IMG/VR virus record: IMGVR_UViG_3300032216_000911
Span: 1 to 49,748 of that record
Source of the DNA: a virus
Taxonomy: Duplodnaviria > Caudoviricetes
DNA: 49,748 nt
Strand: one strand, 5' to 3'
A program made the position numbers and the translations under genes. Below, one piece after another: positions 7,422-45,631 of this stretch (position 1 is the first letter of the stretch; every line of letters begins with the position of its first letter). Below the pieces are notes generated by a model. It had not been told where the DNA came from, did no database searches, and saw only the letters and a program-made list of their open reading frames with translations.

Positions 7422-8546
7422 TTAGCAACCGACCTTTCCACCCTTCTTCATCATGCCAGGCGCGTTCTCAGGGGTTGCCTGAGTAGCAGCGCGAGCCATG
7501 GCGGCGCGGATAGCGCCAACGTCAGGCTTGCCCGAGCGAGAGCGACCCACGCCGATGCGAGGGCCGCCAGCCATAGGAGCGGCCTGCTGCGGGATCATAG
7601 GCGACCGAGGAGCAACCGGAACCCCGCTAGGGCGGGCTCCCATCTGCTGGAGAGGGCTTGCAACTCGAGGGGCTGCGAGGGCCATACCTCCATCAGCGTA
7701 GGGGGTCTTCTTCTGACCTTTCAAAGACGCCTCGATGGCGTTAGACTTAGCCATCTGAACGGCAGGGCCGCCCATAGCCTTCTTAAGGGCATCGGGCTTG
7801 ACCATGCTCTTAATCATGGCCCTGTCCTGCGCTGCATCCTCATGAGGCATCCCGCCCTTCTTGAGGTTAGATGGGCGGCGCGGAGGCATGGGCATGTCCT
7901 TCGCCTTGCCGTAGAAGTCCTCGTCGGTGGACTGCGGGATCTTGCCGCTTTTGATGTCCTTCACGGATACAGAGTCAATCTTGCCACCGTGAGACTTCTT
8001 GGCCTTGCCCGCCTCGCTGAGAGCGATAGCAACAGCCTGCTTGGGGTTCGTGACCTTCGGTCCCTTCTTGGAGCCGGAGTGCAGTTTGCCTTCGCCAAAT
8101 TCGTGCATGACCTTGCTGACCTTGCCGCCCTTCTTGTAGGCAACGCTTTGGTCAGAAGACTTCGAAGATTCGTCAGAACCGCGAGGGTTGACCACAAGAG
8201 GACGAGACCGACCCTTAAGGCGGCGGCCAACATCTTTCGCGGCATTTTCCGTCCACATTGGGTCATTCCAATCCGTAACGCGCGGATTGGGGGTGGGAAC
8301 ATTGTCGCCGTAGCCGGTGTAATCATCTTCGCCCGGCATCCTGCCAGCCTGCGCCGCCATGCCACCAACAGCCTTCTTCATCGGCCCCTTCGGCTTACCC
8401 ACGCCGATGATGACCATCATGCCCTTGGGCTCTTTCTCGACCTTGCCGCCCTTGGCGAACATAGGCCCAGTGACCTTGTTAGGGGCGCTGCTGGTGAAAC
8501 CAGCGGCAGAGGGAAACTCGAAGTCTTTGACGTAGCGAATGGCCAT
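7422..8546 (-). CDS. Basic modular protein (374 aa) with ~9 xA/KxGG tags and an embedded DUF6496-like module
   Basis: Start re-assigned to MAIRYVKDFEF at 8546, 1 nt after upstream stop; KVMHEFGEGKLHSGS...PKQAVAIALSEA resembles DUF6496. Confidence 0.75.
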   Translation of the reverse strand: MAIRYVKDFEFPSAAGFTSSAPNKVTGPMFAKGGKVEKEPKGMMVIIGVGKPKGPMKKAVGGMAAQAGRMPGEDDYTGYGDNVPTPNPRVTDWNDPMWTENAAKDVGRRLKGRSRPLVVNPRGSDESSKSSDQSVAYKKGGKVSKVMHEFGEGKLHSGSKKGPKVTNPKQAVAIALSEAGKAKKSHGGKIDSVSVKDIKSGKIPQSTDEDFYGKAKDMPMPPRRPSNLKKGGMPHEDAAQDRAMIKSMVKPDALKKAMGGPAVQMAKSNAIEASLKGQKKTPYADGGMALAAPRVASPLQQMGARPSGVPVAPRSPMIPQQAAPMAGGPRIGVGRSRSGKPDVGAIRAAMARAATQATPENAPGMMKKGGKVGC

Positions 8547-8547
8547 G

Positions 8548-8793
8548 TTACTTCCCCTTTCGCCGAGCAGCGGCGGCGTTATCGACAAGATTTGGATAGG
8601 GTCGCCCAGCAGCAGCGGCGTGTGCCTTGGCTGATGCTTTCTGTTTCTTTGAAAGGTGGCTTGACTCTCCATCGGGAGCAGGCTTGTCCCAGAAGGGCTT
8701 AACCTTGCCTCCACGGGCGTAGCCGTCAGCAGAGCTGCCAAAGCCAGAGCCCTTGGAAAAGTCAAACTCGCCATATATCGGGCCCTTGGTCAT
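8548..8793 (-). CDS. Small basic protein with a leader ending in YARGG
   Basis: GGAG RBS before MTKGPIY at 8793; C-terminal LSKKQKASAKA.A..AGRPYPNLVDN resembles a recurrent phage small-protein motif. Confidence 0.7.
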   Translation of the reverse strand: MTKGPIYGEFDFSKGSGFGSSADGYARGGKVKPFWDKPAPDGESSHLSKKQKASAKAHAAAAGRPYPNLVDNAAAARRKGK

Positions 8794-8794
8794 G

Positions 8795-9199
8795 TCAGCT
8801 CCCATACAATTCTAAATAAGCCTCAGCCTCTTTGGCATTTTGGCTAGATAGAAGATAGATCTGAGCAAACTCTAGCAATTCAGGAGAGTCTTGAAAAAGC
8901 CCCAGCCCCTTATTGCAGCGGTTACACAACATGCCACGTATTTTATTTGTTGAATGACAATGATCAACAACCAAAGCAGTTTGATCGCCACATATTGTGC
9001 ATTCAAAGGTGCTTTTTATGATTTCATCTAGGTGGAAGTCTGAAATCATGCTGCGATATTTTCCGCGCCGTGTTTCAGAGCGATACATAGACCGACACGC
9101 CCTGCACCAGCTATCAAGGCCGTTTATTTTTTTGTTATGCAAAGGAAAAAATTCTGGCGTACCAGGTTTTTCCTGTTTGCAACGGGTGCATTGAATCAT
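8795..9199 (-). CDS. Endonuclease VII-like HNH (putative free-standing homing endonuclease)
   Basis: CTRCK...CRAC zinc motif; CTICG...VVDHCH...RGMLCNRCNKGLG; AT-richer than flanks; ATGA overlap with upstream stop. Confidence 0.85.
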   Translation of the reverse strand: MIQCTRCKQEKPGTPEFFPLHNKKINGLDSWCRACRSMYRSETRRGKYRSMISDFHLDEIIKSTFECTICGDQTALVVDHCHSTNKIRGMLCNRCNKGLGLFQDSPELLEFAQIYLLSSQNAKEAEAYLELYGS

Positions 9200-9504
9200 G
9201 TCGGGCAATCCCATTTTTTGAGAGAAAGTGCTTTCCTTGTTGGGCGCCCTTTCTCATCTTTCATAGGACCGGGCATTCCTGACATTCTAGCACAAAATGA
9301 CTTGCGCCGCCCAGCCGCGACATCACTTTGCGCAGCTTGCTTTGCGCTCACGGGGGGCTTGATATCATGGCCTTGAGCACGGAGGGACGCGCGCCCCTTC
9401 GCATTTAGTCCGCCCTCTGGGTTCTTCCCCTCAGCGCGCGTCCAAGCGCCACCCGTGCTATAAACAGGAGTCGCGCCGCCCTTGGCCATACACCAGCGCC
9501 CCAT
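9196..9504 (-). CDS. DUF6321-like small basic phage protein preceded by MAKGG/YSTGG tags
   Basis: AWTRAEGKNPEGGLNAKGRAS...RRKSFCARM...KALSLKKWDC. Confidence 0.75.
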   Translation of the reverse strand: MGRWCMAKGGATPVYSTGGAWTRAEGKNPEGGLNAKGRASLRAQGHDIKPPVSAKQAAQSDVAAGRRKSFCARMSGMPGPMKDEKGRPTRKALSLKKWDCPT

Positions 9505-9507
9505 GGG

Positions 9508-9912
9508 TCACCCGTATGTCTTGATGCACTCGAGCACAATCGAGTACATGTCGCCAGAAGAAGCGTCGGCAGTGGTGAACGCGATGTTTCCTGTCTTCGT
9601 CGGAGCGGCGTTGTTGGTGAGGCCGCCAAACTCAGAGAAGTCCATGAAATAGTTCGTGTTCTGCGGGAGCATCCACGTCAGCAAGTCAGTCGTCGCATCC
9701 CAGAGAATGCGGACCTCCATGCCATGAGTGGTCGCCCAGATCTTGTTGATCTTGACGCCCGTGCAGGCCACACCGAAAGCATTCGGCGCAAGGTTGGCCA
9801 CGATCACCTTGTTGACAGCGGTTTCACCCGTGCCGTCAGAGATGTTCGTGAACTTTTGAATAACCAGCCGCTCGCCATCAAGCAGCGTCTGCGTTCCAAC
9901 TGTATCGACCAT
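9508..9912 (-). CDS. Hypothetical beta-rich virion protein
   Basis: Strong RBS (AGGAGG), late-operon position, biased codons. Confidence 0.7.
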   Translation of the reverse strand: MVDTVGTQTLLDGERLVIQKFTNISDGTGETAVNKVIVANLAPNAFGVACTGVKINKIWATTHGMEVRILWDATTDLLTWMLPQNTNYFMDFSEFGGLTNNAAPTKTGNIAFTTADASSGDMYSIVLECIKTYG

Positions 9913-9934
9913 CAGTCCCTCCTAAAGGAAAGTG

Positions 9935-9953
9935 AGGGGGCACAAGGCCCCCT
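9935..9953 (-). terminator. Intergenic GC hairpin, possible weak terminator or mRNA stabiliser
   Basis: AGGGGGC-acaag-GCCCCCT just after the stop at 9960; imperfect U tract. Confidence 0.4.
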
Positions 9954-9959
9954 TGCTTA

Positions 9960-10679: not shown

Positions 10680-10731
10680 TGGTCTTCTCCATGAAAAGCT
10701 TGACCGGTTTTCGGTAGGTCTATTCTCACAT

Positions 10732-10761
10732 AAAAAGAAGGGGCGGTCTAGCCGCCCCTTC
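10732..10761 (-). terminator. Rho-independent terminator after major capsid gene
   Basis: 10-bp stem GAAGGGGCGG/CCGCCCCTTC, 5-nt loop, T5 on minus strand. Confidence 0.85.
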
Positions 10762-10768: not shown

Positions 10769-11683
10769 TTAGACGCCGGGCGTCCCGAAGACCGAGCGCG
10801 GGTCGGTCCAGCCGAGGTCATAACGCTCGGTGGACTTAAAGCGCATCGAGTCGGTCTCGAAGTCGCCTTCCATGCTCTTCTCAAGCGGGCGGCGCATCAT
10901 GAGCTTCAGACCCTCGGGAGCGTCGGTCTCAACCCACCAAGCGGTGGTCGAGGTCAGACGAGACAGGTTAGCCTGACCACCGGCCAGAAGACCCATCGAC
11001 TTCACGGGGTTGATGTCGTTGTTGCCCGTGCCGGTGCGGAGGACGCTCTTCAGCAGAACCTCAGCCTGGAACACGTTGGACGGAGACACCACGAGCTTCG
11101 TCGGGTTCAGACGGATGCGCTTGCCGTTGTTGTCAACAGCATTGCGGACCTGAATGAGGATCTGCTCCAGCGAGGTCTGCGACAGCGCGGCGGCGGTCGC
11201 AAGCTGGTTGGAGAAGGTCCCGTTGATGATCGGGTGGTCGGTCGCAACAAGCGACTTACCGTCACCGCCAGCATAGGCGCCGTTGAACGCGCGGTTAAGC
11301 ACGTTCGCAGCGAGCGTCTCCTTCGTCTCGACCAAGGACTGGGCGAGATGCTTGGCGTAGGTCTGGCCGATACGGATGTGATCACCGTCTTCGACGAGAA
11401 CCTTCGTCAGCGCGAAGGCAAGGCCATAGACCTTGTACTGGTAGCGCTTGATGAAGAGCACACCACCGGACTGGTAGGTGACTGCCGTGCCATCGGGAAG
11501 CTCAGGAGCCGCACCGAAGCCGAACAGAACCGGCTCTTCGTGGTAGTTGCGGGGAATGCCACGCTCCTCGCGGAAGACTTGCTTCCACTCGTCGGCGCGC
11601 TGATCGTAAACGCCGTCGAACGCCTCGTTGAGGATAGGCTCGACAATGGACCGGAAGTCCGTACTGCGCATTGGTGTTGCCAT
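10769..11683 (-). CDS. Major capsid protein (Mu gpT-like HK97 fold)
   Basis: FGFGAAPE, YGLAFALT, ETKETLAANVLNRAF, GGDGKSL...HP, ERYDLGWTDPR; follows scaffold and is followed by a terminator. Confidence 0.9.
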   Translation of the reverse strand: MATPMRSTDFRSIVEPILNEAFDGVYDQRADEWKQVFREERGIPRNYHEEPVLFGFGAAPELPDGTAVTYQSGGVLFIKRYQYKVYGLAFALTKVLVEDGDHIRIGQTYAKHLAQSLVETKETLAANVLNRAFNGAYAGGDGKSLVATDHPIINGTFSNQLATAAALSQTSLEQILIQVRNAVDNNGKRIRLNPTKLVVSPSNVFQAEVLLKSVLRTGTGNNDINPVKSMGLLAGGQANLSRLTSTTAWWVETDAPEGLKLMMRRPLEKSMEGDFETDSMRFKSTERYDLGWTDPRSVFGTPGV

Positions 11684-13764: not shown

Positions 13765-14229
13765 CTACGCGCCAAGAAAGAATGGGACGGCAAGGGGGTC
13801 TTGAACCTTCGTGAGAATGTTCAGATCGTCAAAGATGGCGAACTGAACCTTCTCGACCTTGCCATATTTTGCATGATGGAGCGTCTGAGGGAGGTTAACC
13901 TCAAACCTGTCGCCGCCGTACTTGGGGAGCCACACGAAATCGCCCGGCTTGCACCAAGCTCCTTCGGGCCAATCCGTCATGGTGTCGCGGCTCTTGTAGG
14001 CGAGCGGGCCAACGGCGATAACCTTCGCCACTTGGGTGTTATCTCTTTGAATTTCCTGTGTTTTTTCAGGAACAAAGATAAACGGGTTCAGCTTTTCCTT
14101 TACACCGCGTATCTGAACCAAGATCCGCGACCCGAATGGCGTCATTCCGGCGCTTAATTCGGGGAAAAAATAACCCATGTCATCCGTAAGCTGATCTAGT
14201 ACGGCGCTTTCTGCCATGCTCATCGTCAT
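13765..14229 (-). CDS. GroES-like co-chaperonin
   Basis: PFGSRILVQ...AKVIAVGPLAY...WCKPGDFV..PKYGG; start inferred from GGAG RBS. Confidence 0.85.
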   Translation of the reverse strand: MTMSMAESAVLDQLTDDMGYFFPELSAGMTPFGSRILVQIRGVKEKLNPFIFVPEKTQEIQRDNTQVAKVIAVGPLAYKSRDTMTDWPEGAWCKPGDFVWLPKYGGDRFEVNLPQTLHHAKYGKVEKVQFAIFDDLNILTKVQDPLAVPFFLGA

Positions 14230-14626: not shown

Positions 14627-17044
14627 TCAGGGGTTGATACCGTGGCCGGTGGAGAGATTAGACTTGCCGCCGTGCTCGGCCTCAAATACGGCAAGTTCTT
14701 TCGCGGTGCGGTTGTCCGCATCGTTCATTTGCTGCTTTGCAGCAATATCCATTTGACGCTCTTGCATCTTGATCTGGTCAAGTTGTGTTTCACGGGAAAC
14801 ACGCTCTTGCTCAATCTGAAGCTTCGCCTGATCATACTGCGCCTTGCGCTGCGTCTCGGCCATGAGAACCTGCGTGGGATCCTGAGGCTTCGGCGGCTGA
14901 AATTGCTGCATGAACTGCTGGGCCTGCTGGATAACAGGCGGAACGCCCTGGAGGCTCTGCTGAATGTCAGGCATGAAACGTTGCGAGGCCATCGCCAGAA
15001 GGCGGTCGAGCTCAGCCGACACGTCTTGATCCTTACCCTCAAGGAAGGCGTCCAGAGGCACGCCAGCGGCGTTGCTGGTCTGCTCATAGATGTAGAGCGA
15101 GTACCAGTAAGCCATGTGCTCCTTGATGTGCTGGAGCACACCGGGGATGTACACAGGGCCGATCAACTGGCTCATGCCGAAGATCGGGCTCTTCAGGTAG
15201 TCGAGGTGAACCTGAAGGTGCGCTAGATGGTCTTGCATTGGGAAAGCCGCCACCGGCCTTCCCAGCGTCATGGCGAGGTTCTCGTTGACGGCGTTAAGCT
15301 CAATGGGCTCGGGCTTCTTCGCCAACAGCGGCTTGAAGTCGGGGATCTTCATCCCCTCAAGGAACCGCTCTTCAACGGCGCGCTGGTCATAGAGGCCGGG
15401 CACAGCAGCGGCGCGCTGCACAATAGCCTGCATCTGGGCGGCGCGCTGAACGTCTGAGAAGATGTTGGGGTCAGAGACCGGCACAACATCCATCGGGCCT
15501 TGGAAGTCCTTGGCCTTGCACATCTCCTCGCCGGTCACGCGCTGGATGTACTCGTCGTCGATGTGCTTTGAGTTCAGTCGGTGCAGAACCTTCAGCGTCA
15601 TCGCCATGGCGTAGTGCAGGCGAGCATGAATGGCCGAGAACACCGTCATGCCCTGCTCAATCATGGCGAGGGTGGTGCCGACGGGGACGTTCGGGTTCTG
15701 GTCCTGAAGCTTCTCATAGGTCGTGCGCACGACGCCGCGAGCGGCCTCGGTGACGAAGCCCAGAAGCTGGTAAAGCACGGCGTTCGGCGGGTTGAACGGA
15801 ACGGCCATGGCGATCTTGCGAACGTCATCGACGCCCACGCCGCCCTCGATCTCCGTCACCTGCGTCGGCTCAATACGGTCAGACTGACCACCGCGAGAAC
15901 CGCCCTTCAGCTTCAACATGCCGGGGAAGTTGTTGATGTGCGCCGAGTCGAGGAGGGCTCGCAAAGCGCCAGTAGCCGCACCCGACAGGCTGCCGATCAT
16001 GTGGGGCAGGCCGATGGGATAGGCACCGCGCCAGGGCACGAAGGGAAACTCAATCATGTGAATGAGTTCTTCCTGCTGCTCGTCGTCTGGATCCCAGTTG
16101 CGGTAGATCGACAGCGTTTCCTTTGTCGTGTGGTCGATGGTCACAATGTAGGGGGCGAGGCCGAAGTTGTCTTCGAAGTCGAGATAGCAGGCGACCTCAA
16201 AGACCGTGCGCAGGCCATCCTCGTTGTAGCTGGTTTGCTCGCGGCCTTCGATCTTGTTGTTGGCCTTGCCCGGACCAGTCAGATCTGGCTCTTGCGGAGC
16301 CACGAGATTGATATCGCGAAACATGCCGGTGCCGACACGCTTCTCAAACTCAAGCCGCGTGATGTACTGAACATGGGTCTTGCGCTCAGCGGTGTAGAAG
16401 CTGGTGGCGCTATAGGGTAGGTAAACGTCGTCGATGGGCACGAAGATTGCGCGCGGTCGGTTGCGCTGCTCGTCCCAGATCATCTTCATGTACTGAGCGC
16501 CGCCGAGCGGGACCTGCGTGGTCAGCTGCTCTAGCTCCGGCCTGAACTCAACCATCTGCTGGGTGAGCTGCCAGTTCATAAACTGTTGTTTGCGCTTGGC
16601 TTTCTCAAGCTTTTGCTGCGTAACCTCTCCGGGGATAAATTCCTTTACGGGGCCATTAGCAGGAAACAGTTCCTTAATGACACGGGAGGAAAAGTCTACG
16701 CAGGCTTCGGTCAGCATGGGATGCACGACCTTTGACGCGCCCTGGAAGTCAGCGCCACCTGGGGCGTCGTCGCCCAAACCAGTGCGGCGCAGGCCTTCCT
16801 CGTACTGCTTGTCGCGCAGCGACCGGGCTTCCTTGTCGCGCTCAATGAACTCCAGAAGCTGGCTGGAGATCATCATCATGTCGGTCGTCGGCATGTCCTC
16901 AGCCAAGTTCGCATAGAACTCGGCGTTCTGGGCCATGTCAGGCTCGTCGAGCGTTACAGTCGCGGAGCCGTCTTCATGCTCCTCAATGTCGCTCTCAGCA
17001 TCGGGCTGCATCTCAACTTCTGCGCCCTTTTCGTCTTCATCCAT
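14627..17044 (-). CDS. Portal protein with C-terminal Gln-rich coiled coil
   Basis: 805 aa; FYANLAE, GASKVVHPMLTEAC, PVGTTLAMIEQG..VFSAIHARLH, VPVSDPNIFS; in packaging module. Confidence 0.9.
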   Translation of the reverse strand: MDEDEKGAEVEMQPDAESDIEEHEDGSATVTLDEPDMAQNAEFYANLAEDMPTTDMMMISSQLLEFIERDKEARSLRDKQYEEGLRRTGLGDDAPGGADFQGASKVVHPMLTEACVDFSSRVIKELFPANGPVKEFIPGEVTQQKLEKAKRKQQFMNWQLTQQMVEFRPELEQLTTQVPLGGAQYMKMIWDEQRNRPRAIFVPIDDVYLPYSATSFYTAERKTHVQYITRLEFEKRVGTGMFRDINLVAPQEPDLTGPGKANNKIEGREQTSYNEDGLRTVFEVACYLDFEDNFGLAPYIVTIDHTTKETLSIYRNWDPDDEQQEELIHMIEFPFVPWRGAYPIGLPHMIGSLSGAATGALRALLDSAHINNFPGMLKLKGGSRGGQSDRIEPTQVTEIEGGVGVDDVRKIAMAVPFNPPNAVLYQLLGFVTEAARGVVRTTYEKLQDQNPNVPVGTTLAMIEQGMTVFSAIHARLHYAMAMTLKVLHRLNSKHIDDEYIQRVTGEEMCKAKDFQGPMDVVPVSDPNIFSDVQRAAQMQAIVQRAAAVPGLYDQRAVEERFLEGMKIPDFKPLLAKKPEPIELNAVNENLAMTLGRPVAAFPMQDHLAHLQVHLDYLKSPIFGMSQLIGPVYIPGVLQHIKEHMAYWYSLYIYEQTSNAAGVPLDAFLEGKDQDVSAELDRLLAMASQRFMPDIQQSLQGVPPVIQQAQQFMQQFQPPKPQDPTQVLMAETQRKAQYDQAKLQIEQERVSRETQLDQIKMQERQMDIAAKQQMNDADNRTAKELAVFEAEHGGKSNLSTGHGINP

Positions 17045-17053: not shown

Positions 17054-19240
17054 TTACAGTTTTGATAGAGGTGATTGGCCGAAAGCATACCCTACATTTG
17101 GGTTTTGCGATATCGGGGACGGGGCAGGGGCGGCATTGACGTTCTTCATCGCCAGCGTGGCAAGGCCAGGCTGCATGGTCGGAACCGACGCAGCGATAGA
17201 CGGGGCCATCGGCGAAGCATGAGGCGCGTCAGAACCGTAGGCATCACTGGCAGCAAGGCCGGGAGGCTGGGCAATGCTGCCCACAGGCCCCTCGCCGTCC
17301 GTGAAGGCCATTGTGGGGTACGGGGGCACGGTTGGCTGGGACGGAGGCTGCATGGGCGACACCAGCCCGCCGTCGGCGAAGTACTGGTCAGCGTTGAAGT
17401 AGCCGCCTTGAGCGGCGGCAGGACCGTAAAACCGCTGCTCAGCGCCAAATCCATACTTGGTCGGATCGCCGGTCAGGCCGAGATATCGGCGGAGGGCAGT
17501 GGCGGTGTCAGGCGCAGGTCCGGATGCCGTAACGGTAGGGGTAGCCGTGGGATCGAAGGTGGCAAGGTCAATGATTTGCGATCCAGTGGTGAGTGGTGGA
17601 ACATATATATCGCCGCCAGATCCTGTACCATTATCCGCTCCAGTATAGCTGGGTGCCTGAGCCTGAGCTGACGTGGACGACATGGCGGTGGGCTGAGACG
17701 ATGGGGCAGATGGAGATACTGCTGGTGCAAAAGCCGATGGAGTAGAGCTAGGCAACCCAGCCGCCACATTCCCAACTGTATTAGCCGCTTGCGCGTTTTG
17801 AGCGGCAAGAGCATCAAGCGTATTCATGCTCAAGCCTTGTTCTAAATCTTGAACATCTGTTGGAGACCCAGATCTGCCAGCAGCTGTCCATTGAGCTTGC
17901 GCCAATGCAGCACGATCCGCGTCGCTGAGAGCGGAAACTTGTTCGTTTTCTAAAGTACCAAGAGGAGACGCTAAATTACCGGGCGAAGTGGTAGTGGTTA
18001 TTGTTGGCGCCATATCTGGGGCAAATGGCGATCCCACGGGCGCAGCAGATACTTGAGGAGCGCCTGTAAATGTTTGCGCCGCAGCAAGATTTTGCGCGGG
18101 AGAACCAGATCTAGATCCAAGGCCAGGGGCTCCCGGCGTAGCCGACGGATCAAAAGCATTGAAACCATATGCGCTTTGCACGGTAGCGGCTGGCCCGTAG
18201 GTAGCCCCAAAAACATTAGTAGCGGCGGGGCCTGGCTGCGAGCCATAAATGGCCTGCTGCCCCTTGGCCGCAGCAATACTGTTACTTGTTGATCGTAGGC
18301 TGTTGACAAAGTCTGGATTAGCATCAACCCATCCCGGACGAGAAGCGGGGTCAAGGCTATTAAGCCAACTATCAAACTCGCCCCTTCCAGCGGCATTTTT
18401 GGCGGCGGTGAGAGTTGCCGGATAAGATGCGGTGCTTGGAGATGCCTCAGCAGTACCAACACCAAACAATTCGCCAATAGCGTTGCCAAGCGATCCCAAA
18501 ATTCCTGATGTACCGCCACCGCCAGACCCAGGCCCGGTTCCTACATCCGGGCCAGCTTCTGGGGCAGATGATGTCTCCGGTGCCGCAGCGCTGGTATCCA
18601 AACCGGCGCTTACAGCTCCAAGAGTGCTGCTTAAGGCAGCGTTCTGGTCGGCCAAAGAGGCATATGCGTCAGCGCTGATTCCTTGCGGGGCGTTCGCCAT
18701 AGCAGCCAACTCTGCTGGTGACGCCAAGGATAGAGAGTCACTCGTCAAACCAACCAAGCCAGCATCGGGCCCATCAGGCCCGTCCGCAAGACCAGCCAAG
18801 CCTTCAGCGCCCTGCGACCCAAGCCCAGCACCCAGACCACCCCAGCCAGCGGCCTCACCGGCTGACAGGCCAGTGCCCGCGTCAGCCTCGCCAGCCGCAG
18901 AATTAGCATCCCCCATGCCGTCGCCCATGCTGCCGCCTGAACCACCGCCTTCGCCGCCACCGTTTCCGTCCGAGCCGCCACCATCGCCATCGCCGCAGCT
19001 GCCGCAACCGCCGCAGCCCTGAGCGATCAGGGCGACGTTCTTGTTCTCGTGGATGTCGGCCCAAGCGCCGCCAAGCTGGTCAAGCAGTGCGCGTTGCTCA
19101 GCCGTGATCAGGGGAATGACCTTGGCGGGCAGTCGGTCGAGGGGGATCTGGGCGACAATCGCCTCGGCCACCGGGTTTTGGTCGGCCACATAGTGCTTGA
19201 GCAGCTTGGCCGCCAAGGCCCGGAGGTCGTTGTCGTTCAT
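17054..19240 (-). CDS. Low-complexity Gly/Ala/Ser/Pro-rich putative internal virion/ejected protein
   Basis: 728 aa between terL and portal; helical N-terminus, CGGCGSC plus Gly/Asp tract, AAQGG and FADGG tags. Confidence 0.6.
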   Translation of the reverse strand: MNDNDLRALAAKLLKHYVADQNPVAEAIVAQIPLDRLPAKVIPLITAEQRALLDQLGGAWADIHENKNVALIAQGCGGCGSCGDGDGGGSDGNGGGEGGGSGGSMGDGMGDANSAAGEADAGTGLSAGEAAGWGGLGAGLGSQGAEGLAGLADGPDGPDAGLVGLTSDSLSLASPAELAAMANAPQGISADAYASLADQNAALSSTLGAVSAGLDTSAAAPETSSAPEAGPDVGTGPGSGGGGTSGILGSLGNAIGELFGVGTAEASPSTASYPATLTAAKNAAGRGEFDSWLNSLDPASRPGWVDANPDFVNSLRSTSNSIAAAKGQQAIYGSQPGPAATNVFGATYGPAATVQSAYGFNAFDPSATPGAPGLGSRSGSPAQNLAAAQTFTGAPQVSAAPVGSPFAPDMAPTITTTTSPGNLASPLGTLENEQVSALSDADRAALAQAQWTAAGRSGSPTDVQDLEQGLSMNTLDALAAQNAQAANTVGNVAAGLPSSTPSAFAPAVSPSAPSSQPTAMSSTSAQAQAPSYTGADNGTGSGGDIYVPPLTTGSQIIDLATFDPTATPTVTASGPAPDTATALRRYLGLTGDPTKYGFGAEQRFYGPAAAQGGYFNADQYFADGGLVSPMQPPSQPTVPPYPTMAFTDGEGPVGSIAQPPGLAASDAYGSDAPHASPMAPSIAASVPTMQPGLATLAMKNVNAAPAPSPISQNPNVGYAFGQSPLSKL

Positions 19241-19704
19241 GGCCTGATAGCCTCATGGATCCGGTGAAGGGTCGGGTACTGGCCCAATTTTACACCATTA
19301 TCCAGCAGATTGGCTACCTCGATCATTTGGAGGTCGTCGAGCTCCTGCTCGGTCATGGGAAGAGGCTTGCCGGTCTCATAGTCGAGGGGATAGCCGTCCT
19401 CGAGCCCCTTGGGGCGGTTCACCCTTGAGAACAGCCACGCCAGCCGCTCGGCCCGCTCGCCGAACAGCCCGGCGATGACCGGACGCTGCTCTGGCGTCAC
19501 GGTCACTTTCTGAAAGACGTTCGTCCCATAAATCGAATGCAAGCCTCCGCCCAGAGCCACGTCCTCTTCAGCGCCCATGCGTAAAAGGTCATCATAGGTA
19601 TTCACCAGATGTTCGCCGAGCGTCCGCCCGATGTGGGAGTTGTGCATCTTGCGGAATGCGCCGACGCGCTTCAGCGCCGTGAACAGCAAGTGGCGCTTAC
19701 TCAC
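19237..19704 (-). CDS. DUF6817-like (HD-fold-related) protein
   Basis: HIGRTLGEHLVNTY..L..MG....VALGGGLHSIYGT...R.VI..LFGERAERLAWLF. Confidence 0.75.
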   Translation of the reverse strand: MSKRHLLFTALKRVGAFRKMHNSHIGRTLGEHLVNTYDDLLRMGAEEDVALGGGLHSIYGTNVFQKVTVTPEQRPVIAGLFGERAERLAWLFSRVNRPKGLEDGYPLDYETGKPLPMTEQELDDLQMIEVANLLDNGVKLGQYPTLHRIHEAIRP

Positions 19705-20317
19705 GGGGCTTGCCCTTCAAAACAAGGACGCGGCGGATCGTCGGGCAGATCCGGCTGACGCCCCGACCGACGTGGCGGATGTTGCCGGGGAAGATAGTAA
19801 TCCTTCCATACCGAGGCAGGACTGCCTTGATCACGTCGTCGCTGTCGTCGAGGAAGACGGTCTCGCCTGCCCACTCAGCCTTCCAGTCCTTCTCGACGTA
19901 GATGATGCAGGTCTCGTCGGTCTCGAACTTGCTGTCACGGTGGATGTATCCCTCAACGCCGTAGGTATGGGCGTTGGAGTAAGCCCGAACGAGTACAGGC
20001 GTGGTCGGCATGAAACGAGGCTGGATGTAGTCCCAGAGGTCGCGGATGCACTGGGGGACTTCATGATAGACTTCCTCGCGCTCGACCTTGCTGTCGGACA
20101 GCACCACGTTCCAGTGGCCGAATCCAAGCATCTGGCTCGACTTCCAGCCATAACGCCAGTTGCGGGCGTCGAGCTCGTCGATGGCTGCGTCCAGCAATTC
20201 TTGGGGGATCTTGTCGTCATAGCAGCGGATCTTGTCCGCCTCGGTAATCTCTTTCGCTGCTTCGAGAAGGCTCGCATCAGCCTTCAGCTGCCTGATCAGT
20301 TCTGCGATGGGGTCCAT
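19697..20317 (-). CDS. 2OG-Fe(II) oxygenase (prolyl-4-hydroxylase-like)
   Basis: HxD (IHRD), W..EWAGETVF, distal H (NIRH), R..LVLK 2OG-binding motif. Confidence 0.9.
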   Translation of the reverse strand: MDPIAELIRQLKADASLLEAAKEITEADKIRCYDDKIPQELLDAAIDELDARNWRYGWKSSQMLGFGHWNVVLSDSKVEREEVYHEVPQCIRDLWDYIQPRFMPTTPVLVRAYSNAHTYGVEGYIHRDSKFETDETCIIYVEKDWKAEWAGETVFLDDSDDVIKAVLPRYGRITIFPGNIRHVGRGVSRICPTIRRVLVLKGKPRE

Positions 20318-20318: not shown

Positions 20319-21227
20319 TTATATCCTTTTGCTGAGTTTTTTCAGTGCCTTAGCCATCGCTGGGCGGGACTTGACCACATCACTGTCAAGAGCGCCCTCG
20401 ACATGCTCCTTGGTGCGCTGAAGCCCGTCAAGGCCTTTCATGCGCGCCATCTGATCGCCCATGTGACCAGAGCCCATGAAGTCGTGCTTGCCGCCCATCA
20501 TCTCGTTAAGCCGAGCGAAGGTGCGAGCAGACGGCGCGTAGGTCTGGAAGCGCTGCAACAGACCATCGACATCGCCGGTCATGATCTGCCTGGCGAAGTC
20601 CATGGCCCGCTCCGGGGGCATGTACATGCCGCTCGCCACCTTCAGGAGGTAGGCGAGGTGCTGTAAATCAAGATTATCTTTATTTGCAATGTCAGCAATG
20701 TCCTTTGCAACTTTAGAAATTTGATTTGGGGTAGCCGGATTGGCGGCTGGTTCCTTTACGTCACCACCCTTCGCCTTCTCAAGCGGCTTGGAGTGATCCT
20801 TCTTCAGCCAGTCCTTCAGCTCGTGCGTCCCCATCTCAACCACCGAGTGGATCCGCTTGTGGCCCTGCCCGTCGGAGAACGAGTGGACGTAGTCGCGCAG
20901 GGCATGGGCACGGTCCTTGTACCCGAGCAGCACCTTGTGCTCATTGAACTTGCCGGTGCGGGGGTGCTGCTGGTTGACGACGAAGACCTTCTTCGAGTCG
21001 CGGTGCGGCCCGACGAAGGCGTCGGTCTTCATACCGTCGTGGTCGGGCTTCGACGTGTCGATGTAACCGTAATCCGCCGCCATGCGGGATGCGCCGCTGT
21101 CTTTCCTATGGCGGATCTCGCCCTTGTGCTCCTCGAGCGACACCGGCTCGCCTGCCGCCATGGTGTGCCCAACGACCGCGCGACCGCCCGTGGCGAAGTA
21201 CTGATCAGCGTCGAACTTAGGCAGCAT
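20319..21227 (-). CDS. Inorganic-pyrophosphatase-like (InPase, polyvalent-protein type) domain protein with helical C-terminal module
   Basis: DYGYI...DGMKTDAFVG...VFVVNQ..P.TGKFNEHKVLLGY...A...Y; start MLPKF at 21227 has AGGGG RBS. Confidence 0.8.
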   Translation of the reverse strand: MLPKFDADQYFATGGRAVVGHTMAAGEPVSLEEHKGEIRHRKDSGASRMAADYGYIDTSKPDHDGMKTDAFVGPHRDSKKVFVVNQQHPRTGKFNEHKVLLGYKDRAHALRDYVHSFSDGQGHKRIHSVVEMGTHELKDWLKKDHSKPLEKAKGGDVKEPAANPATPNQISKVAKDIADIANKDNLDLQHLAYLLKVASGMYMPPERAMDFARQIMTGDVDGLLQRFQTYAPSARTFARLNEMMGGKHDFMGSGHMGDQMARMKGLDGLQRTKEHVEGALDSDVVKSRPAMAKALKKLSKRI

Positions 21228-36584: not shown

Positions 36585-36590
36585 AAGCCA

Positions 36591-39030: not shown

Positions 39031-39749
39031 TACACTTCATCTGGCTCACGCAGCCTGGCAGCAGGCCCTTCAGCTTCATCAACTCGCTGGCCGTGCTGGC
39101 GGCGACTGCTCACCACCTCGAGCCCATCATCATGTGGTGCAATGAGGTGCCCCGCAACAATCCCAACTGGTACATGGTGAAGGACCTATTTGAGGTAAGA
39201 CATGTCGATCTCCCGACCGAGATCGGCGGGGTGCCGCTGACGCATATCCAATACAAGGCGGACGTGCTTCGCCTGCGTATCCTGCAAGAGCATGGCGGCA
39301 TATACCTAGATACCGACAGCCTACTCCTGAAGCCCCTGACGCCCTTGGTGGGGCCAGAGATGGTGCTGGCTCGGGAAAGCCCTGACTCGCTGGCCATGTC
39401 GCCGATCATCGCCAAGCCAGGCGCTGATTTCATTGGGAAATGGCTGGATCGGATCCCGGCTGCGCTTGAAGTTGGGACCTGGGCATACCACGCTGTAAAT
39501 TTACCTGTGGAAATCTCGAAGGAATGTCTGTGTGACATTCGCCCCCAGCACGAGTTCTTTCCCTTTGACCTTCGTCACAATTACCTCTTCGACGAGGGCA
39601 GGGCAGACGAGCACATAAAGCGCTTAGGAGATCCCTATGCGCTGCACGTTTACGAAACCTACTGGGCCGGATACATCGACGGTGTGGACGAGTCCTACAT
39701 GAGGACCCGCGACACGCTGTTTGCGAGGTTGTTTAAGGGCCTCGTCTGA
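39027..39749 (+). CDS. Glycosyltransferase family 32-like (DxD sugar-binding)
   Basis: IHFIW, ADVLRLRILQEHGGIYLDTD, YALHVY. Confidence 0.85.
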   Translation: MIHFIWLTQPGSRPFSFINSLAVLAATAHHLEPIIMWCNEVPRNNPNWYMVKDLFEVRHVDLPTEIGGVPLTHIQYKADVLRLRILQEHGGIYLDTDSLLLKPLTPLVGPEMVLARESPDSLAMSPIIAKPGADFIGKWLDRIPAALEVGTWAYHAVNLPVEISKECLCDIRPQHEFFPFDLRHNYLFDEGRADEHIKRLGDPYALHVYETYWAGYIDGVDESYMRTRDTLFARLFKGLV

Positions 39750-41766
39750 TGGTCAAGGGCGGCATCTGATACGGCTCTTGCTCTGGCATTCTGCCGCCCA
39801 TGGTTTTGGTAGCGACCTTGGTCCCCGCAGTAGCAAGCGCACGCTGCTTGGTCGCCTTTGCTGCCTGATCTTCAGCATAGGCAGAAAGAGATTTGGTTAC
39901 ACGGTCAACCTCTTCTGGCGTTCCAGAGCGTAGCATTTCGCCGATAGCATTTGCACGTTTCTCAGGGATCGAAGGGTTTTGCACTAAAAAGTTGAAGACC
40001 CTGTTCAGTGCGGATGCAGGCTTGCCTGTTGCCACGTCCTTTGCAACGCCCAGAGCAGTCATGTCAGGGGCGGATTCAAGATCCTTCAAGCCTTCTAAGC
40101 GGCGAGCTGTCGGAGATCCGCCTTTGATGCGTTGAGCGTTTGCCGCAAGCTTTGCCTCCGTCTCAAGATAAGCTTGAAACAGCTGACCACTCATTTGCTC
40201 GGGCATGATAATATTGAGCGAGTCTCTTCGATCTTGAATGGCCTGACCTATACGCTTGGTTGCATCTGTATTGTCAGCGCTGCCAAAAAGCTTGTCGCGC
40301 ATGGCCTTAATAGCGCCTGCACGATAGGCTTCCTTCTCAGCATCAGACATGCCTTTCCACGCCAGCTTCAGCTCCTCAGGATCAGCCGTCATGAACTCCT
40401 TGCGGGCATTTGTCAGGGCGTTCTTGACCTCCATGTCGCCAGCATATTGAGCACGAGCAGCGGCAAACTCGGGGACATTTTTATCAAGCGTGCTGGCGAT
40501 CTCATTCTTCAGCATGGTGGCGCCGCGACCGAGTTGCGTAACTTTTCCGGCCACGTCAGTTTGGCTGTCAATGACCTGACCAAGGCCACGCATGATGTAA
40601 TCGTATTGCCGGATCTGCGGCAAGCCCGCAAAATCTTGGCTGGTAAGAGCAGCTGTCCCGGTCTCTTTAAAATTCTTCCGCCTCTCAGCCAAAAATAGCT
40701 TTTCGGCATATTTTGCAGCTTCAGGAAAAGCAGCGTTTACATCATCCATGACGGTCTGAAGCTGATACTGAGCCTCTGGGGGAAGCTTAGCCTTGTAGGC
40801 CTGATCGTAGAGGGGTGAAGCCTTGGTGCGCAGTGCCTCAACAGCGTTATCAACCGTATCAAAATAAGGCTGACTGGAATCAAGGCGCTCTTTGGCCTGC
40901 TCCATAATACGCTGACGCTGCCCCTGCTGGCGGTCAATGACTTCTTGCGTAAGAGCCTCGCCAGCTGCTCCAGGACGCTGCGCAATAGCCTCTGCGCGTG
41001 ACGTGAGGGATGGGGCAACATCAAAGTAGTTCGGAGACGCGCCCGTAGACTGCATGTATTCAAAGCGGGCTTGCGCCTGCTCTGGTGTCATGCCGCTGCG
41101 CTGAAGGTCCTGCAAGACCTTCTGCTTAGCCACACCTTCAGAGAAGACACTGGGGGCTACGCGTTCGGCGAGACCCTTAACAACGGGCGCAGCAATCTTG
41201 CCAGCGCCGGTCAGCAACGGACCTAGAGCCGCACCTGTAGCGCCACCTTCTAGGCCACCAACAACACGGTTAGAGAAGCCCCCCTCGGCACTTCCAAGGC
41301 CCCCAATAACACCCTGTTTCGTTCCAATAACGCCAGCTTGAATGTAGGGCTCAGCCACTTTGCCAATCCTGCTGGCAAGTTGAAGGCCCTTTGCTTCACC
41401 AAGGCCAGGCACAAGAAGAGTAGGCAGGCTACCAACAACCTCAGACCCAAGCGCCGCTACAGGATACTGGTCGCGAAACCTTTTCAGCGAATCTCGTTCC
41501 TCTTGAAGGGCCTTGTCGTAATCTTCACCGCCAAGCTTTGAACGCGCCAGTGCTGTCAGCTCGTCACCAAAGCCAAACGTAAGGCCAGATCCTACAGAGC
41601 GTGCAAGGCCCTTGGCATACTCGCCCCCACTCATGGGCTGTGATGCCTCTGGCACTGTAGCAATGGGTTTTTTTTCGGGCGCAGAACCGCGAATGCTCTT
41701 AAGAGCAGTTTGGATCTCTTCATCCGTTGCGTCGTCAGGGAAGTTGTATCCCAATACCATCTTCAT
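39733..41766 (-). CDS. Internal virion/DNA-ejection protein
   Basis: FPDDAT N-terminus, GLTFGFGDE, Gly/Ala hydrophobic segment, PLYDQAY, AAARAQYAG, GGSPTARR; last of the tail genes. Confidence 0.7.
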   Translation of the reverse strand: MKMVLGYNFPDDATDEEIQTALKSIRGSAPEKKPIATVPEASQPMSGGEYAKGLARSVGSGLTFGFGDELTALARSKLGGEDYDKALQEERDSLKRFRDQYPVAALGSEVVGSLPTLLVPGLGEAKGLQLASRIGKVAEPYIQAGVIGTKQGVIGGLGSAEGGFSNRVVGGLEGGATGAALGPLLTGAGKIAAPVVKGLAERVAPSVFSEGVAKQKVLQDLQRSGMTPEQAQARFEYMQSTGASPNYFDVAPSLTSRAEAIAQRPGAAGEALTQEVIDRQQGQRQRIMEQAKERLDSSQPYFDTVDNAVEALRTKASPLYDQAYKAKLPPEAQYQLQTVMDDVNAAFPEAAKYAEKLFLAERRKNFKETGTAALTSQDFAGLPQIRQYDYIMRGLGQVIDSQTDVAGKVTQLGRGATMLKNEIASTLDKNVPEFAAARAQYAGDMEVKNALTNARKEFMTADPEELKLAWKGMSDAEKEAYRAGAIKAMRDKLFGSADNTDATKRIGQAIQDRRDSLNIIMPEQMSGQLFQAYLETEAKLAANAQRIKGGSPTARRLEGLKDLESAPDMTALGVAKDVATGKPASALNRVFNFLVQNPSIPEKRANAIGEMLRSGTPEEVDRVTKSLSAYAEDQAAKATKQRALATAGTKVATKTMGGRMPEQEPYQMPPLTIRRGP

Positions 41767-41768
41767 GG

Positions 41769-43196
41769 TTATTGCCCCGGTTGGAGAACAAGTTGGCCAT
41801 TTGCATCGCGAGTAAAGCTTCTTGGAGCCGACTGCTGTTTGAAGAAGTCCTGATAGCCAACCCGGTTCGGGTTCAGTTTGATGTTAGAAATATCACCTCG
41901 GGGGTCTTGGCTGCTGTCAAACACCGGATTAGCATTCAAATATGTTTTCCAGTGCTTTTGCGCACCATCAAGTGTTCCGTTCTGAGAAAGATAATCACGA
42001 AAGAACTCGCGTCGATCAATCTCAAGTTGTTTTGCAGCAATCATGCCAAGACCAATATTTCGGTTGGTCGCATAGTCGTTTGATGTGCTCATGGATGCTT
42101 TGCCAAACTGTTTTGCGTCGAAGTCAGACATGCTGCCTTCGCCTGCTTGGCGCATACCGCGCGACAACCCAATGGCAATCTTGTCCATTTCCTTGGCTTC
42201 TGCAGAGAATGAAGGCAACTGCCCAACAATAGGACCAGTTTTGCTTTTGTTGACTTCATTGATTTCCAAGAACCTATTGGCTTCGCGGATCTCTTCCTGA
42301 AGCGATCCAACAGGTTTTTTTGTCTCTTCCTTATCAAGAAGGTCGCGGCCCTTGTCCATTTCGCGAACCTTGAACTGCTCTCGTACTTTGGGAGATTGAA
42401 TAAAGGCAGCATTATCCCTTTCCGGAACAGGGATTCCAGATGCCTGCGCGAGCTGCTGACGGTTTGCCGCGCTAGTTGAATCAGCTAAGGCCTTGATTTT
42501 TGCCGGATCAAGCTCCTGATTGGTGATTGGGTCATATTGTTTGTCACCAACCACCTTAATGGTCATCACAGTGCCGTCAGTCATCTTGATATCTTTGTAT
42601 TCAGGTTCTGCCTCGCCAATGTCGAGTTTTTGTTTAATAGCGCGTGCGCGATCTTCCGGCGATAAGGTAGCCAGAAGCTGCTGTGTCTCAGTGGGTTTGG
42701 GCTGCGCAGCCTGCTGCGCTTGCAGAAGCTGCAATGCCTGCGCCGGATCCACACCGCCAGTGCCAGCCATCTCCATGCCGAGCTTCTGACGTGCCATCTG
42801 AAGCTGCTGAAGTTGCTGCTGACGTTGACGCTGAGCCTCTGCCGCCTTCGACAACGGACCAGCTAAGGCTGTCCCAACATTGCCCAGCGTTTCGCCAAAA
42901 CCTCCACTGCGGGTGGTCTGTCCGAGTGCGCCAGCTGCTTGAAACAACATCGAAGCCCTGTCAAGGTCGCTCATCCCGGTCTGGCTGAGAGCGCCTTCCT
43001 GCTTCTGCATGGAGGCAAGATATTCTTGCTGCGCGGCACGCTGAGCGTCAGCCTTTTGCTGCATTTGCTGATAGATAGCCTGATACGGGCCCTGAAACTG
43101 AAGAGCGGCAAGGCCTGACGCTGGCACAGCAGCAGGCTTCTCGTCATCATCTTCGGTGTTTACTTGGCCGCCGAGCGGTGCCTGTGTGATGGCCAT
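41769..43196 (-). CDS. Internal virion/DNA-ejection protein
   Basis: Gln-rich coiled coil, GGFGETLGN, GEGSMSDFD; position. Confidence 0.65.
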   Translation of the reverse strand: MAITQAPLGGQVNTEDDDEKPAAVPASGLAALQFQGPYQAIYQQMQQKADAQRAAQQEYLASMQKQEGALSQTGMSDLDRASMLFQAAGALGQTTRSGGFGETLGNVGTALAGPLSKAAEAQRQRQQQLQQLQMARQKLGMEMAGTGGVDPAQALQLLQAQQAAQPKPTETQQLLATLSPEDRARAIKQKLDIGEAEPEYKDIKMTDGTVMTIKVVGDKQYDPITNQELDPAKIKALADSTSAANRQQLAQASGIPVPERDNAAFIQSPKVREQFKVREMDKGRDLLDKEETKKPVGSLQEEIREANRFLEINEVNKSKTGPIVGQLPSFSAEAKEMDKIAIGLSRGMRQAGEGSMSDFDAKQFGKASMSTSNDYATNRNIGLGMIAAKQLEIDRREFFRDYLSQNGTLDGAQKHWKTYLNANPVFDSSQDPRGDISNIKLNPNRVGYQDFFKQQSAPRSFTRDANGQLVLQPGQ

Positions 43197-43199
43197 ATT

Positions 43200-44195
43200 T
43201 CAACTCTTGCCCAAGAGGTTGCTAAGAGCCGCCGCGCTAAGGCCAGCACTGGCCAGCGAGGCGAGCGGCGATGCGGAGTAGGTATTTCCCATCGATGTGG
43301 TGGCGCCGGTGGAGGTGCCACCACCGGACGGCAACCCACGCACGATGTTGCTGAGGAATCCCAGCTGCTGCTCAGGATACTGCGTCTGGGTCTGGAAGTC
43401 CTGATAGGCTAGATCCAGGTTCTTCTGGTTCAGGGCCTGCTGCTGCGCGCCGACGGCCTCCTGAGCCGCAGCGCCCGTCAGACCGAGCGCTTGCTCCTTC
43501 TGACCAAGACCAGCCTGTACACCCGCCAGAGCGGCCTTGTTGGCCTCCTCGGTGCCCGTAAGCTGCCCTGCGGCCTGCCCAAGGGACGCCATGCGCTGAA
43601 GGTCGGCCTGAGCCTGAGTGCCAGCCGTGGTGTAACCCTGCGCCAGCTGAGCGCCGATGTTCTGCTCGAGCCCGGAGGCAATGTCGCGAACACCGCGCTG
43701 GGCAATCTCTTGCTGGCGGCTGGATCCGAACTGACCTGCGCGCGTGAACTGATCGCCAATCGCAGGAAGGATCTTCTCCTGCAACTGACGCTGGGCCTCG
43801 GTGCCCATGCGATCAATCACGTTCTGCTGGTAGGGGTTCATGTACTGCTGAATGGTGCTCGGCAGCGTCTGGCTTGCGGCGCTGAAGTATGGCTGCGCAG
43901 CGCCAACGGTGCTGAGCCCACCAGCCTGCGTCGCCGTCTTTTCGGCAGCCTGAAGCTGGGGCTGGTAAGCGCCAGCAGCCTGCTGTGACGCCTGAAACGC
44001 AGCCTGCTGGGGATCCGTAAACCCGGCGATACGCGGGCCACCGTAGGCCTGATATGGCTGCTGAGCGGCGCTGTAGGCGCCAGACATGAGGTTGTAGAGG
44101 TAGTCCGACAGATACTGCGGAACCTGCGAGGTTGAGAGTGTGGAGCTGGTAGAGGGGAGGGGTGTCCCCTGCGTGAGGAAGTTTAGGAACGCCAT
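43200..44195 (-). CDS. DNA transfer/pilot protein (P22 gp7-like position)
   Basis: Gln/Ala-rich; YMNPYQQNVID, AGQFGSSR; hydrophobic C-terminal helix. Confidence 0.7.
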   Translation of the reverse strand: MAFLNFLTQGTPLPSTSSTLSTSQVPQYLSDYLYNLMSGAYSAAQQPYQAYGGPRIAGFTDPQQAAFQASQQAAGAYQPQLQAAEKTATQAGGLSTVGAAQPYFSAASQTLPSTIQQYMNPYQQNVIDRMGTEAQRQLQEKILPAIGDQFTRAGQFGSSRQQEIAQRGVRDIASGLEQNIGAQLAQGYTTAGTQAQADLQRMASLGQAAGQLTGTEEANKAALAGVQAGLGQKEQALGLTGAAAQEAVGAQQQALNQKNLDLAYQDFQTQTQYPEQQLGFLSNIVRGLPSGGGTSTGATTSMGNTYSASPLASLASAGLSAAALSNLLGKS

Positions 44196-45631
44196 TATGC
44201 TCTCCCACCCATCAAATACTGCTCAGGCGCCCGCGCATCGGGGCTGAACTTGCCCTGCGACAGGGCCTTGCCCTTCTGCTTGCGGATATTAGCACGGAAT
44301 TGATCAAGGCGCTGCGCCCCTGCTTTCGAAGATCCGTCGCCGAGCAGAGCCACAGTTTCAGCGTCAATCACATATTCACCGTCCGACAGCTTGGCGTCGA
44401 TGCTGTCCGAGCGCCCAGTGCCGCCACCCTGCACATAATGGCTCAGGGGGCCACCGTGAGCGGCCTGCACCGGCTGCTGATCGCCAACGTCGGAGTAGAA
44501 GCGCTGCTCCTTGGCCTGTGGCCTCATTCCATAGTTGTAGTAATCAATAGGGCCAGCAAGGCGGGTGCGATCAAGAGGGGCCGTAGCCAGACGGCGCGTC
44601 ATGTTGGGGTCGGTAGAAGTGGGGGTGCCAGCGCCAGCAGAAATAGACGGCATCTCCGGCTGCTTAGGTCCGCTGTCGCCGCCCAAGAGCGCCCCAAGAC
44701 CGACGGCGGCAGCAGCCATCTTGTCAGGGTTAGTGGCGTATCCTTGAAGGGCGCTCATAATGCCCGAGCCCTTGGACGCCGTAGCCGCAGGATCCACATT
44801 GAAGGTCATGCCGCTTGTACCCTTGTCAACAAGATTCCCGCCAAAAACCTCGTTTCCTGGAGTTGTTTTGATAGTGTCGGCTGCTTTGTTCAAATAATCT
44901 AGGTCGGCGCTACTGTACCCGCCAGCGCCTTCAAGGACGCCTCCGGGGGTTCCGGTAGTAACAGAAGCTGGGGGCGCCGCCCCTGATCCTAAATAATTTC
45001 CCAGCGCCGAAGCGCCGATGGTCCCAGCACCAGCAAGAAGGCCACTTGTTAACGCACCCTTGCCGCCACCCGTCAAAGCGCCAATTCCTGCGCCCAGCGC
45101 AGCGTTACCGGCCAAAGTGCCAAGCGTGGCGCTGCCAAGCCCGCTGATGCCCGTGGCGCCAGCAAGCGTGGTTCCAGCCGCCTCACCCGCCCCCAGCGTA
45201 CTCAAAAGCCCTGCACCGAGCGAGCTGCCCACGCCAGTCGCCATAAGAGCGGTGCCAGCCAGCGCCGCCACAGGCGCAAACCAAGACTGCTTCCAGAACG
45301 GCGTGAATTGAGGCATCCCGGTATGAGGATTGATTGTCGGCTCGCCCCACTCTTTGCAGAGTTTCTGGTATTCGTCTTTATTGATGTGGATGACCATGGT
45401 GTCGCCGCCGACGCCAGCATCAGCCACGTTCTTAGCCTGAGACGCTAGGCCGCCCTTGGCCATCTTCTCGACGTGCTCCTTGGGCATCTTGATCTCAAAG
45501 GGCATACACCCTGCCCGGCCACCCTTGGCGAAACGGCTCATGGGACTGCCCTGATGCGCGGCGTCAGCAGCATCATTGGCGAGGGGCGTCCAGTTAGCGG
45601 GGTAGTCGGGGTAATGAATCATCTCAGCCAC
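44195..45631 (-). CDS. Internal virion protein with xAxGG tags, Gly-rich hydrophobic segment and tape-measure-type C-terminal motif
   Basis: FAKGG, MAKGG, GGDTMVIHIN...TINPHTGMPQF, AAHGG...GTGRSDSIDAKLSDGEYVIDA. Confidence 0.7.
   Translation of the reverse strand: MAEMIHYPDYPANWTPLANDAADAAHQGSPMSRFAKGGRAGCMPFEIKMPKEHVEKMAKGGLASQAKNVADAGVGGDTMVIHINKDEYQKLCKEWGEPTINPHTGMPQFTPFWKQSWFAPVAALAGTALMATGVGSSLGAGLLSTLGAGEAAGTTLAGATGISGLGSATLGTLAGNAALGAGIGALTGGGKGALTSGLLAGAGTIGASALGNYLGSGAAPPASVTTGTPGGVLEGAGGYSSADLDYLNKAADTIKTTPGNEVFGGNLVDKGTSGMTFNVDPAATASKGSGIMSALQGYATNPDKMAAAAVGLGALLGGDSGPKQPEMPSISAGAGTPTSTDPNMTRRLATAPLDRTRLAGPIDYYNYGMRPQAKEQRFYSDVGDQQPVQAAHGGPLSHYVQGGGTGRSDSIDAKLSDGEYVIDAETVALLGDGSSKAGAQRLDQFRANIRKQKGKALSQGKFSPDARAPEQYLMGGRA

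Follow-up and report, generated by a model that had tools for sequence, protein, structure and literature searches.

A double-glycine tag in six late proteins of an aquatic podovirus, a candidate site for docking and cleavage

The stretch of DNA analysed here, called the window throughout, is 49,748 nucleotides long (IMG/VR record IMGVR_UViG_3300032216_000911) and holds most of the genome of a podovirus (a short-tailed phage) with its late genes on the minus strand. Its major capsid protein (10769..11683, minus strand) is 81% identical to that of Caulobacter phage RW and about 40% identical to those of HTVC023P and CRP-901-type podoviruses, and on this basis we class the phage as an HTVC023P/Caulobacter-RW-type podovirus. 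Six of its late proteins carry a short motif ending in two glycines, which we refer to as the tag and which had been picked out in a sequence-only reading as [FYMKLA][AKS]xGG.

The most heavily tagged gene encodes a polyprotein-like cargo protein of 374 residues with eight tags (7422..8546, minus strand, as for every tagged gene, tag and module below; the start at 8546 was taken from relatives). Pattern matches place these tags at 8445..8459 (FAKGG), 8361..8375 (KAVGG), 8124..8138 (YKKGG), 7983..7997 (KSHGG), 7851..7865 (LKKGG), 7767..7781 (KAMGG), 7686..7700 (YADGG) and 7437..7451 (MKKGG, four residues from the C-terminus), and a domain scan puts a DUF6496 unit after YKKGG and before KSHGG. 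The others are a basic protein of 81 residues (8548..8793) that matches family phrog_34011 and has the tag YARGG at 8707-8721; a 97-residue DUF6321 protein (9196..9489) with an N-terminal MAKGG (9475-9489) and a weak YSTGG (9448-9462); a low-complexity acidic protein of 728 residues (17054..19240) that adjoins the portal gene and has paired AAQGG (17402-17416) and FADGG (17366-17380); a 302-residue InPase protein (20319..21227) in which FATGG (21183-21197) and KAKGG (20763-20777) bracket the domain; and the first protein of the ejection cluster (44195..45631, 478 residues), with FAKGG (45518-45532), MAKGG (45449-45463), AAHGG (44450-44464) and two small modules, A and B. An Endonuclease VII-type gene (8795-9199, minus strand), probably a homing endonuclease, lies between two of the tagged genes, and a DUF6817 gene and a 2OG-Fe(II) oxygenase gene (19237-20317, minus strand), both untagged, lie among the tagged cargo genes that separate terminase from portal.

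Of the roughly 19 copies counted by hand in the sequence-only reading, 18 fit the pattern at the genes named, while MAGG in 7422-8546 breaks it. The six proteins hold 18 loose matches against 3.97 expected (5,000 within-protein shuffles, maximum 13) and 16 matches to a strict form against 0.78 expected (shuffle maximum 5), whereas the other 31 late genes (8,813 residues) hold one loose match against 4.9 expected and no strict one. Because the six proteins had been chosen for carrying the motif, a second test was made with a profile trained on other genomes; the 17 best-scoring sites in the window all fell within the six tagged genes, and YSTGG was weak (profile score 2.4). Among 80 capsid-anchored relatives the profile found 291 tags compared with 31.6 in shuffles, and 63 of the 80 loci have at least one. 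The enrichment that the sequence-only reading presupposed is present both in the six proteins against the other late proteins and in relatives, and the tag is a real feature. Calling it genome-wide, however, overstated its reach, as only cargo-like and ejection proteins carry tags.

The tag consensus is [GK]-[YFMKL]-[AK]-[KED]-G-G-x-[VA]. Since the Gly codons differ among copies, the tag is a feature of the proteins and not a DNA repeat; this codon variety rules out a DNA-repeat origin. We also considered a flexible glycine hinge that would aid unfolding and threading through the portal and tail with no specific reader. Gly-Gly is indeed flexible and the tag-bearing proteins are of low complexity, but there are strong residue preferences at P1, at P1' (Ala 0.85) and two residues past the Gly-Gly, and the tag is absent from the Gly-rich fibres and from two of the three other ejection-cluster proteins, making a hinge very unlikely.

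Some further sites were noted. The capsid protein has a YQSGG that scores 7.6 and is kept in relatives; it is probably a structural loop of the HK97 fold, and we did not count it as a tag. YQAYGG, a single site of moderate score (6.9) in a DNA ejection protein (43200-44195, minus strand; phrog_4287), may be a further tag. In the late genes of HTVC023P (L082), a variant of the tag, [FY][NK]xGG, is found on ejection proteins and on small basic proteins; among its sites is the C-terminus of gp83. In Pag-Yong1 (L345:36033-37401), two small genes that follow the capsid cluster have strong tags close to their C-terminal ends; the window's genes in the same position (6333-7421 and 6034-6336, paired by position and not by homology) are untagged. 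No description of the tag was found in the literature searched, which took in few of the subscription papers.

The tags had further been proposed to mark domain boundaries, and a domain scan bore this out. With residue positions following the longest open reading frames (ORFs), DUF6496 (216-258) lies between YKKGG (213-217) and KSHGG (260-264), InPase (28-151) between FATGG (20-24) and KAKGG (160-164), and DUF6321 (26-98) after YSTGG (15-19). The placement at module junctions also extends to homologues, since tags are kept in relatives with shuffled modules. By the loose pattern, a tag comes just before 29 of the 31 copies of DUF6496; on the downstream side 15 have a tag, and in the other 16 the reading frame ends within a few residues. 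The segments that tags delimit fall into families beginning at AxGG and ending in Y/F/M/K, and these modules differ in number and order between the genomes of relatives. None of 41 tags in 13 large proteins of relatives falls inside a Pfam stretch, a weak result given how short these stretches are.

Tags are also found as tandem copies and at the ends of proteins (of 104 tags in 36 large proteins from relatives, 35 are at most 70 residues from an end), which suggests that the tag serves as an address too. It might be a docking address and nothing else, loading cargo into the prohead and never cut in podoviruses. Tandem and terminal tags such as the last MKKGG would free no domain, and no protease would be needed to expose AKGG in the MAKGG at residue 1, both of which favour an address alone. 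On the other side, the cut mapped in phage T5, described below, falls exactly at a tag, and the eight tags of one 374-residue protein delimit shuffled modules, so that we regard this possibility as quite unlikely. In DSL-LC04 (L348:10344-12821), three tags stand within the first 60 residues of a PcfJ-like protein encoded between terminase and portal, where an address would be expected.

In the first ejection-cluster protein, modules A and B are each a small domain directly behind a tag. Module A (45296..45460) reads tag, then G-D..H..E..N-P-x-T-G, with D and H invariant and E nearly so; its His is not shared with module B. Module B (44198..44461) consists of a tag, a linker of variable length and a core, G-x-G-T-G-R-S-D..L-S-D-G-E, whose Glu is invariant in 142 of 142 aligned rows and whose Asp is at least 90% conserved. 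The two modules are related (hhalign E 1.2e-4). Module B matches PHROG profiles of tape-measure proteins and the tape-measure protein of PDB entry 8zdo (E 2.5e-10). The lambda module matches the module B profile (hhalign E 1.3e-4, bridged by phrog_24), the JBD30 homologue comprises residues 1022-1066 (E 4e-8), and the 9NA copy matches 1,146 phage records; the module is thus very widespread, with 6,725 clusters of module B relatives at 50% identity. By these profile comparisons, module B is identified as a homologue of the C-terminal module of lambda/JBD30/9NA-type tape measures, with a tag directly upstream. A tag-module-tag layout is found in the tape measures of lambda, JBD30, Tourach and Pan1 (mycobacteriophage tape measures likewise have this domain between two tags).

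A PDB sequence search with module A gave no match, and the Atlas gave no named match. The AlphaFold2 model of module B was poor, with helices only and no strands (predicted local distance difference test 48.4 with 35 rows and 58.6 with 142), and searches with it were uninformative (no Foldseek matches; best VIA-align Z 3.2). We consider modules A and B candidates for a tag reader or protease, and better candidates for the partner of the tag than the portal, scaffold, major capsid, 12292, 9508 and 6034 proteins suggested earlier. A copy of module A also occurs in a 1,441-residue PcfJ-bearing cargo protein and not in an ejection protein (L016:2515-2685), the module of HTVC023P (L082) reads as an A/B hybrid, and a 2,237-residue protein (P0145) has 20 module B matches.

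The position of a possible cut is suggested by the T5 tape measure, pb2, which is processed to pb2* and pb2C. It is reported to be cut after R1127 (PMC10038345), where the sequence reads FVPR↓AEGGMM (the arrow marks the cut), directly before A-E-G-G and, as in the window, ahead of a Glu-bearing module. Trypsin-free intact masses of the fragments are given as 121,683 and 9,702 Da (PMC11937500), compared with 121,679.6 and 9,701.7 Da computed for a cut between R1127 and Ala. A tag profile trained on 319 tags adjoining modules A/B in the ejection proteins of relatives ranks the R1127 site first in pb2 (9.4, next 6.6), so the cut likely falls before Ala and not after Gly-Gly. Because only 2 of the 1,218 bonds in pb2 precede A-x-G-G, this match between cut and tag is unlikely to have arisen by chance. 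All eight T5-like sequences aligned retain R-A-x-[GS]-G as well as G-E-x-G-x-E.

Bacteriocin leaders, ubiquitin, adenovirus and African swine fever virus (ASFV) precursors are cut after Gly-Gly. The sequence-only reading had drawn on this analogy, which is probably wrong given that T5 pb2 is cut before Ala-x-G-G. A cut after Gly-Gly of the kind made in bacteriocin leaders and in adenovirus/ASFV polyproteins would suit the invariant GG and the hydrophobic residue at -4 from the second Gly, but in T5 it would give a fragment of 9,387 Da instead of the 9,702 measured. Furthermore, no C39 peptidase, ABC exporter or adenain-like protease was found among the 55 window ORFs scanned, and the tags here are internal, repeated and C-terminal, unlike a double-glycine leader. 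We therefore hold cleavage after Gly-Gly to be extremely unlikely.

In the cleaved region of the lambda tape measure gpH, processed to gpH* and gpHC, the order is FATGG-module-YATGG, the module being the one that matches module B. The relatives-trained profile ranks Y778 first and F733 second in gpH, and our predicted cut is F733↓A734 (the lambda scan returned 80 near-identical loci, of which 1 was kept and 79 dropped). The cut site and catalyst are stated to be unknown in the accessible part of PMC12617516, and the available text of papers on T5 and lambda tape-measure cleavage (e.g. PMC12617516) names no motif. Tape-measure cleavage differs from the present case in that here the tag is spread over six podovirus proteins, most of them without a module.

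A second likeness is to the crAss001 cargo protein C1 (gp45; PF25725), also the first gene of an ejection cluster, following the nozzle/muzzle gene. Of its 21 GG pairs, several belong to xAxGG tags that separate small basic units. Its portal-bound domain was modelled as residues 425-552 and its tail-bound helix as 214-245 (PMC10172136, in part). We found that residue 425 is the Ala of N-A-F-G-G, so that the ordered domain starts at a tag Ala, with the next tag at F559-A560; the tail-bound piece is flanked by tags at 206 and 260. Both pieces would be explained by cleavage, although the limits of a model are no proof. The two systems differ in that no homology is seen at the level of hidden Markov models (HMMs), that the tags of crAss001 are in one protein only, and that cleavage is not reported there. 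The link of module B to crAss001 consists of a pattern and an Atlas feature score of 0.80, below the 0.9 bar, and is a lead only. In a crAss-like contig (L233), the gp45 homologue has a long insert between two tags that by eye resembles a tail-lysozyme domain.

Next, we compared tag counts with the presence of the module in 8 of 19 capsid-related records plus the window, a small and related set consisting mostly of 40-50 kb parts, on the late strand. Any tag adjoining a module is counted by construction, and for the window the total of 17 takes in one doubtful ORF but not 8548-8793. Where the module is present, observed and expected tags were 17 and 5.0 in the window, 11 and 1.8 as well as 8 and 3.8 for DSL-LC04, 11 and 5.2 in HTVC023P, 10 and 7.9 in Pag-Yong1, and 5 and 3.7 in Caulobacter RW. 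Without a clear module they were 3 and 3.9 (CRP-901), 3 and 2.1 (QDWS535), 2 and 3.4 (ct2G2228), and 1 and 2.1 (ct2os315). Tags were thus at chance in four of four genomes without a clear module, and free tags were in excess in three of five with it. It is suggestive only that free tags go with the module.

We consider it fairly probable that the [YFMKA]-[AK]-x-G-G tag is a docking and cleavage site, cut at x↓A-x-G-G during virion assembly. The tagged proteins would be internal to the virion, and their tags would be bound by the Glu-bearing modules A/B of 44195-45631, seated at the portal; by analogy with crAss001 C1 (PMC10172136, in part), the docking site of module B would be the portal protein (14627-17044). 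Bound tags would then be cut just before Ala (or Lys), in cis beside the module and in trans on the other proteins, freeing InPase, small basic peptides and segments of the ejection protein as separate chains for packing and ejection. Cuts at the eight tags of 7422-8546 would yield nine mostly basic peptides of 0.8-8.5 kDa, one of them DUF6496 and seven carrying a net charge of at least +2 or close to that, and InPase freed at both of its tags would be a chain of 15.7 kDa. The weakest step is catalysis by the module itself, which, given cleavage, we put forward tentatively and at somewhat less than an even chance. The earlier proposal of an address or cleavage signal is partly supported and survives best as an address plus a putative processing signal.

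Several observations weigh against a docking and cleavage site. We infer both the virion location of the tagged proteins and their cleavage in this phage from sequence. The module has only about 55 residues, a single invariant Glu and no recognised set of catalytic residues. Module B has no PF25725 match at E 0.01, and comparisons of the T5-type and crAss-type modules with A/B are not significant (hhalign E 0.09-0.7); for the T5 pb2C module (E 0.2-0.3, from an 8-row alignment only) the likeness is one of pattern. Among the genomes compared, Caulobacter RW has the module and no free tags, the Pag-Yong1 total is near chance, and CRP-901 has a weak module-A-like match (E 0.011). In T5, R-A-L-G-G (138-142), whose bond after R138 is the other one that precedes A-x-G-G, stays uncut, so the motif alone is insufficient for cutting. 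An older assignment by matrix-assisted laser desorption/ionization puts the pb2 cut after V1148 (PMC11937520, in part), and its 123.9 kDa matches the mass computed for residues 2-1148. For lambda, the predicted fragment is 12.5 kDa compared with the roughly 14 kDa quoted. The crAss001 paper, where available, takes gp45 as one uncut chain (PMC10172136), and N↓AFGG is not among the top 12 gp45 sites in the tag profile.

Alternatively, x↓AxGG may be cut by another protease, either a host enzyme or an unrecognised phage protein, with modules A/B serving only as portal or baseplate anchors. An anchoring role would fit the tagged crAss001 domain, which was seen bound to the portal wing (PMC10172136, in part), and the module-B homologue of JBD30, proposed from prediction as an anchoring ‘hook’ in which no peptidase motif was found (PMC11445458, in part); the title of a 1973 paper cites a host role in T5 tail cleavage. 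However, tags bracket the module in tape measures, free tags abound only in module-bearing genomes, the hosts range over Proteobacteria, Bacteroidota and Actinomycetota, and the uncut RALGG of T5 lies far from its module. We judge a separate protease somewhat unlikely. No known head protease was found among the 55 window ORFs scanned, and no MPTase in the window. Genomes of close relatives are 55-57 kb, so the window is without about 5-7 kb of such a genome; in five relatives whose ORFs were read by eye, this stretch has fibre, holin-like and lysis genes, no tags apart from one chance match in a lysozyme, and no visible head protease (read, not profile-scanned).

More broadly, the Glu-dependent module of about 55 residues could be a self-processing peptidase of siphophage tape measures and of podophage and crassvirus ejection proteins, cutting x↓AxGG in cis and, in this abundant aquatic podovirus clade, also in trans at the portal. 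We see this wider claim as unlikely as it stands. If true, it would supply a cause for the cleavages of lambda gpH and T5 pb2, which have not been assigned to any enzyme, and at the portal one general system would load any tagged cargo and process polyproteins. A tag that works in trans would be a signal of five residues that accounts for how these phages deliver variable cargo and that marks off many small phage peptides lacking annotation. The crAss001 structure could also be read in another way, with one chain of gp45 bound to the tail and a separate one to the portal. The lambda prediction offers an exact and cheap test of a question open since 1974, namely where and by what gpH is cut (PMC12617516, in part).

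Processing of internal head proteins by T4 gp21, phiKZ gp175 and SPN3US gp245 relies on a dedicated serine prohead protease that cuts after Glu. It is similar in that a short motif common to many internal proteins serves for loading and for cutting in the prohead, and it differs in that no prohead protease was found here, the tag lies on the prime side and the inferred P1 is M/Y/A/F/L/K and not Glu. Polyvalent proteins (Iyer et al., 2017; PMC5512222) are comparable in their InPase and PcfJ cargo domains, for which packaging and a later release through processing were predicted; zincin MPTases were proposed for this, and the word ‘glycine’ occurs 0 times in the accessible text.

The remaining late genes, all on the minus strand, were assigned by family matches: portal (14627..17044, no tag), terminase (21217-22665), GroES (13765-14229), adaptor (48772-49425) and a four-gene ejection cluster (39733-45631). 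Several head-cluster genes match no family, NCBIfam gave nothing meaningful for 22 proteins searched, and a PDB sequence search with the capsid protein gave no match; the phrog_133 and phrog_4523 matches on 10769-11683 fall on the capsid part of fusion profiles. Finally, four consecutive fibre-related proteins (1335-6037, minus strand) share a near-identical C-terminal domain that ends in ..GS[VI]NI[LM]YE and has no Pfam name.

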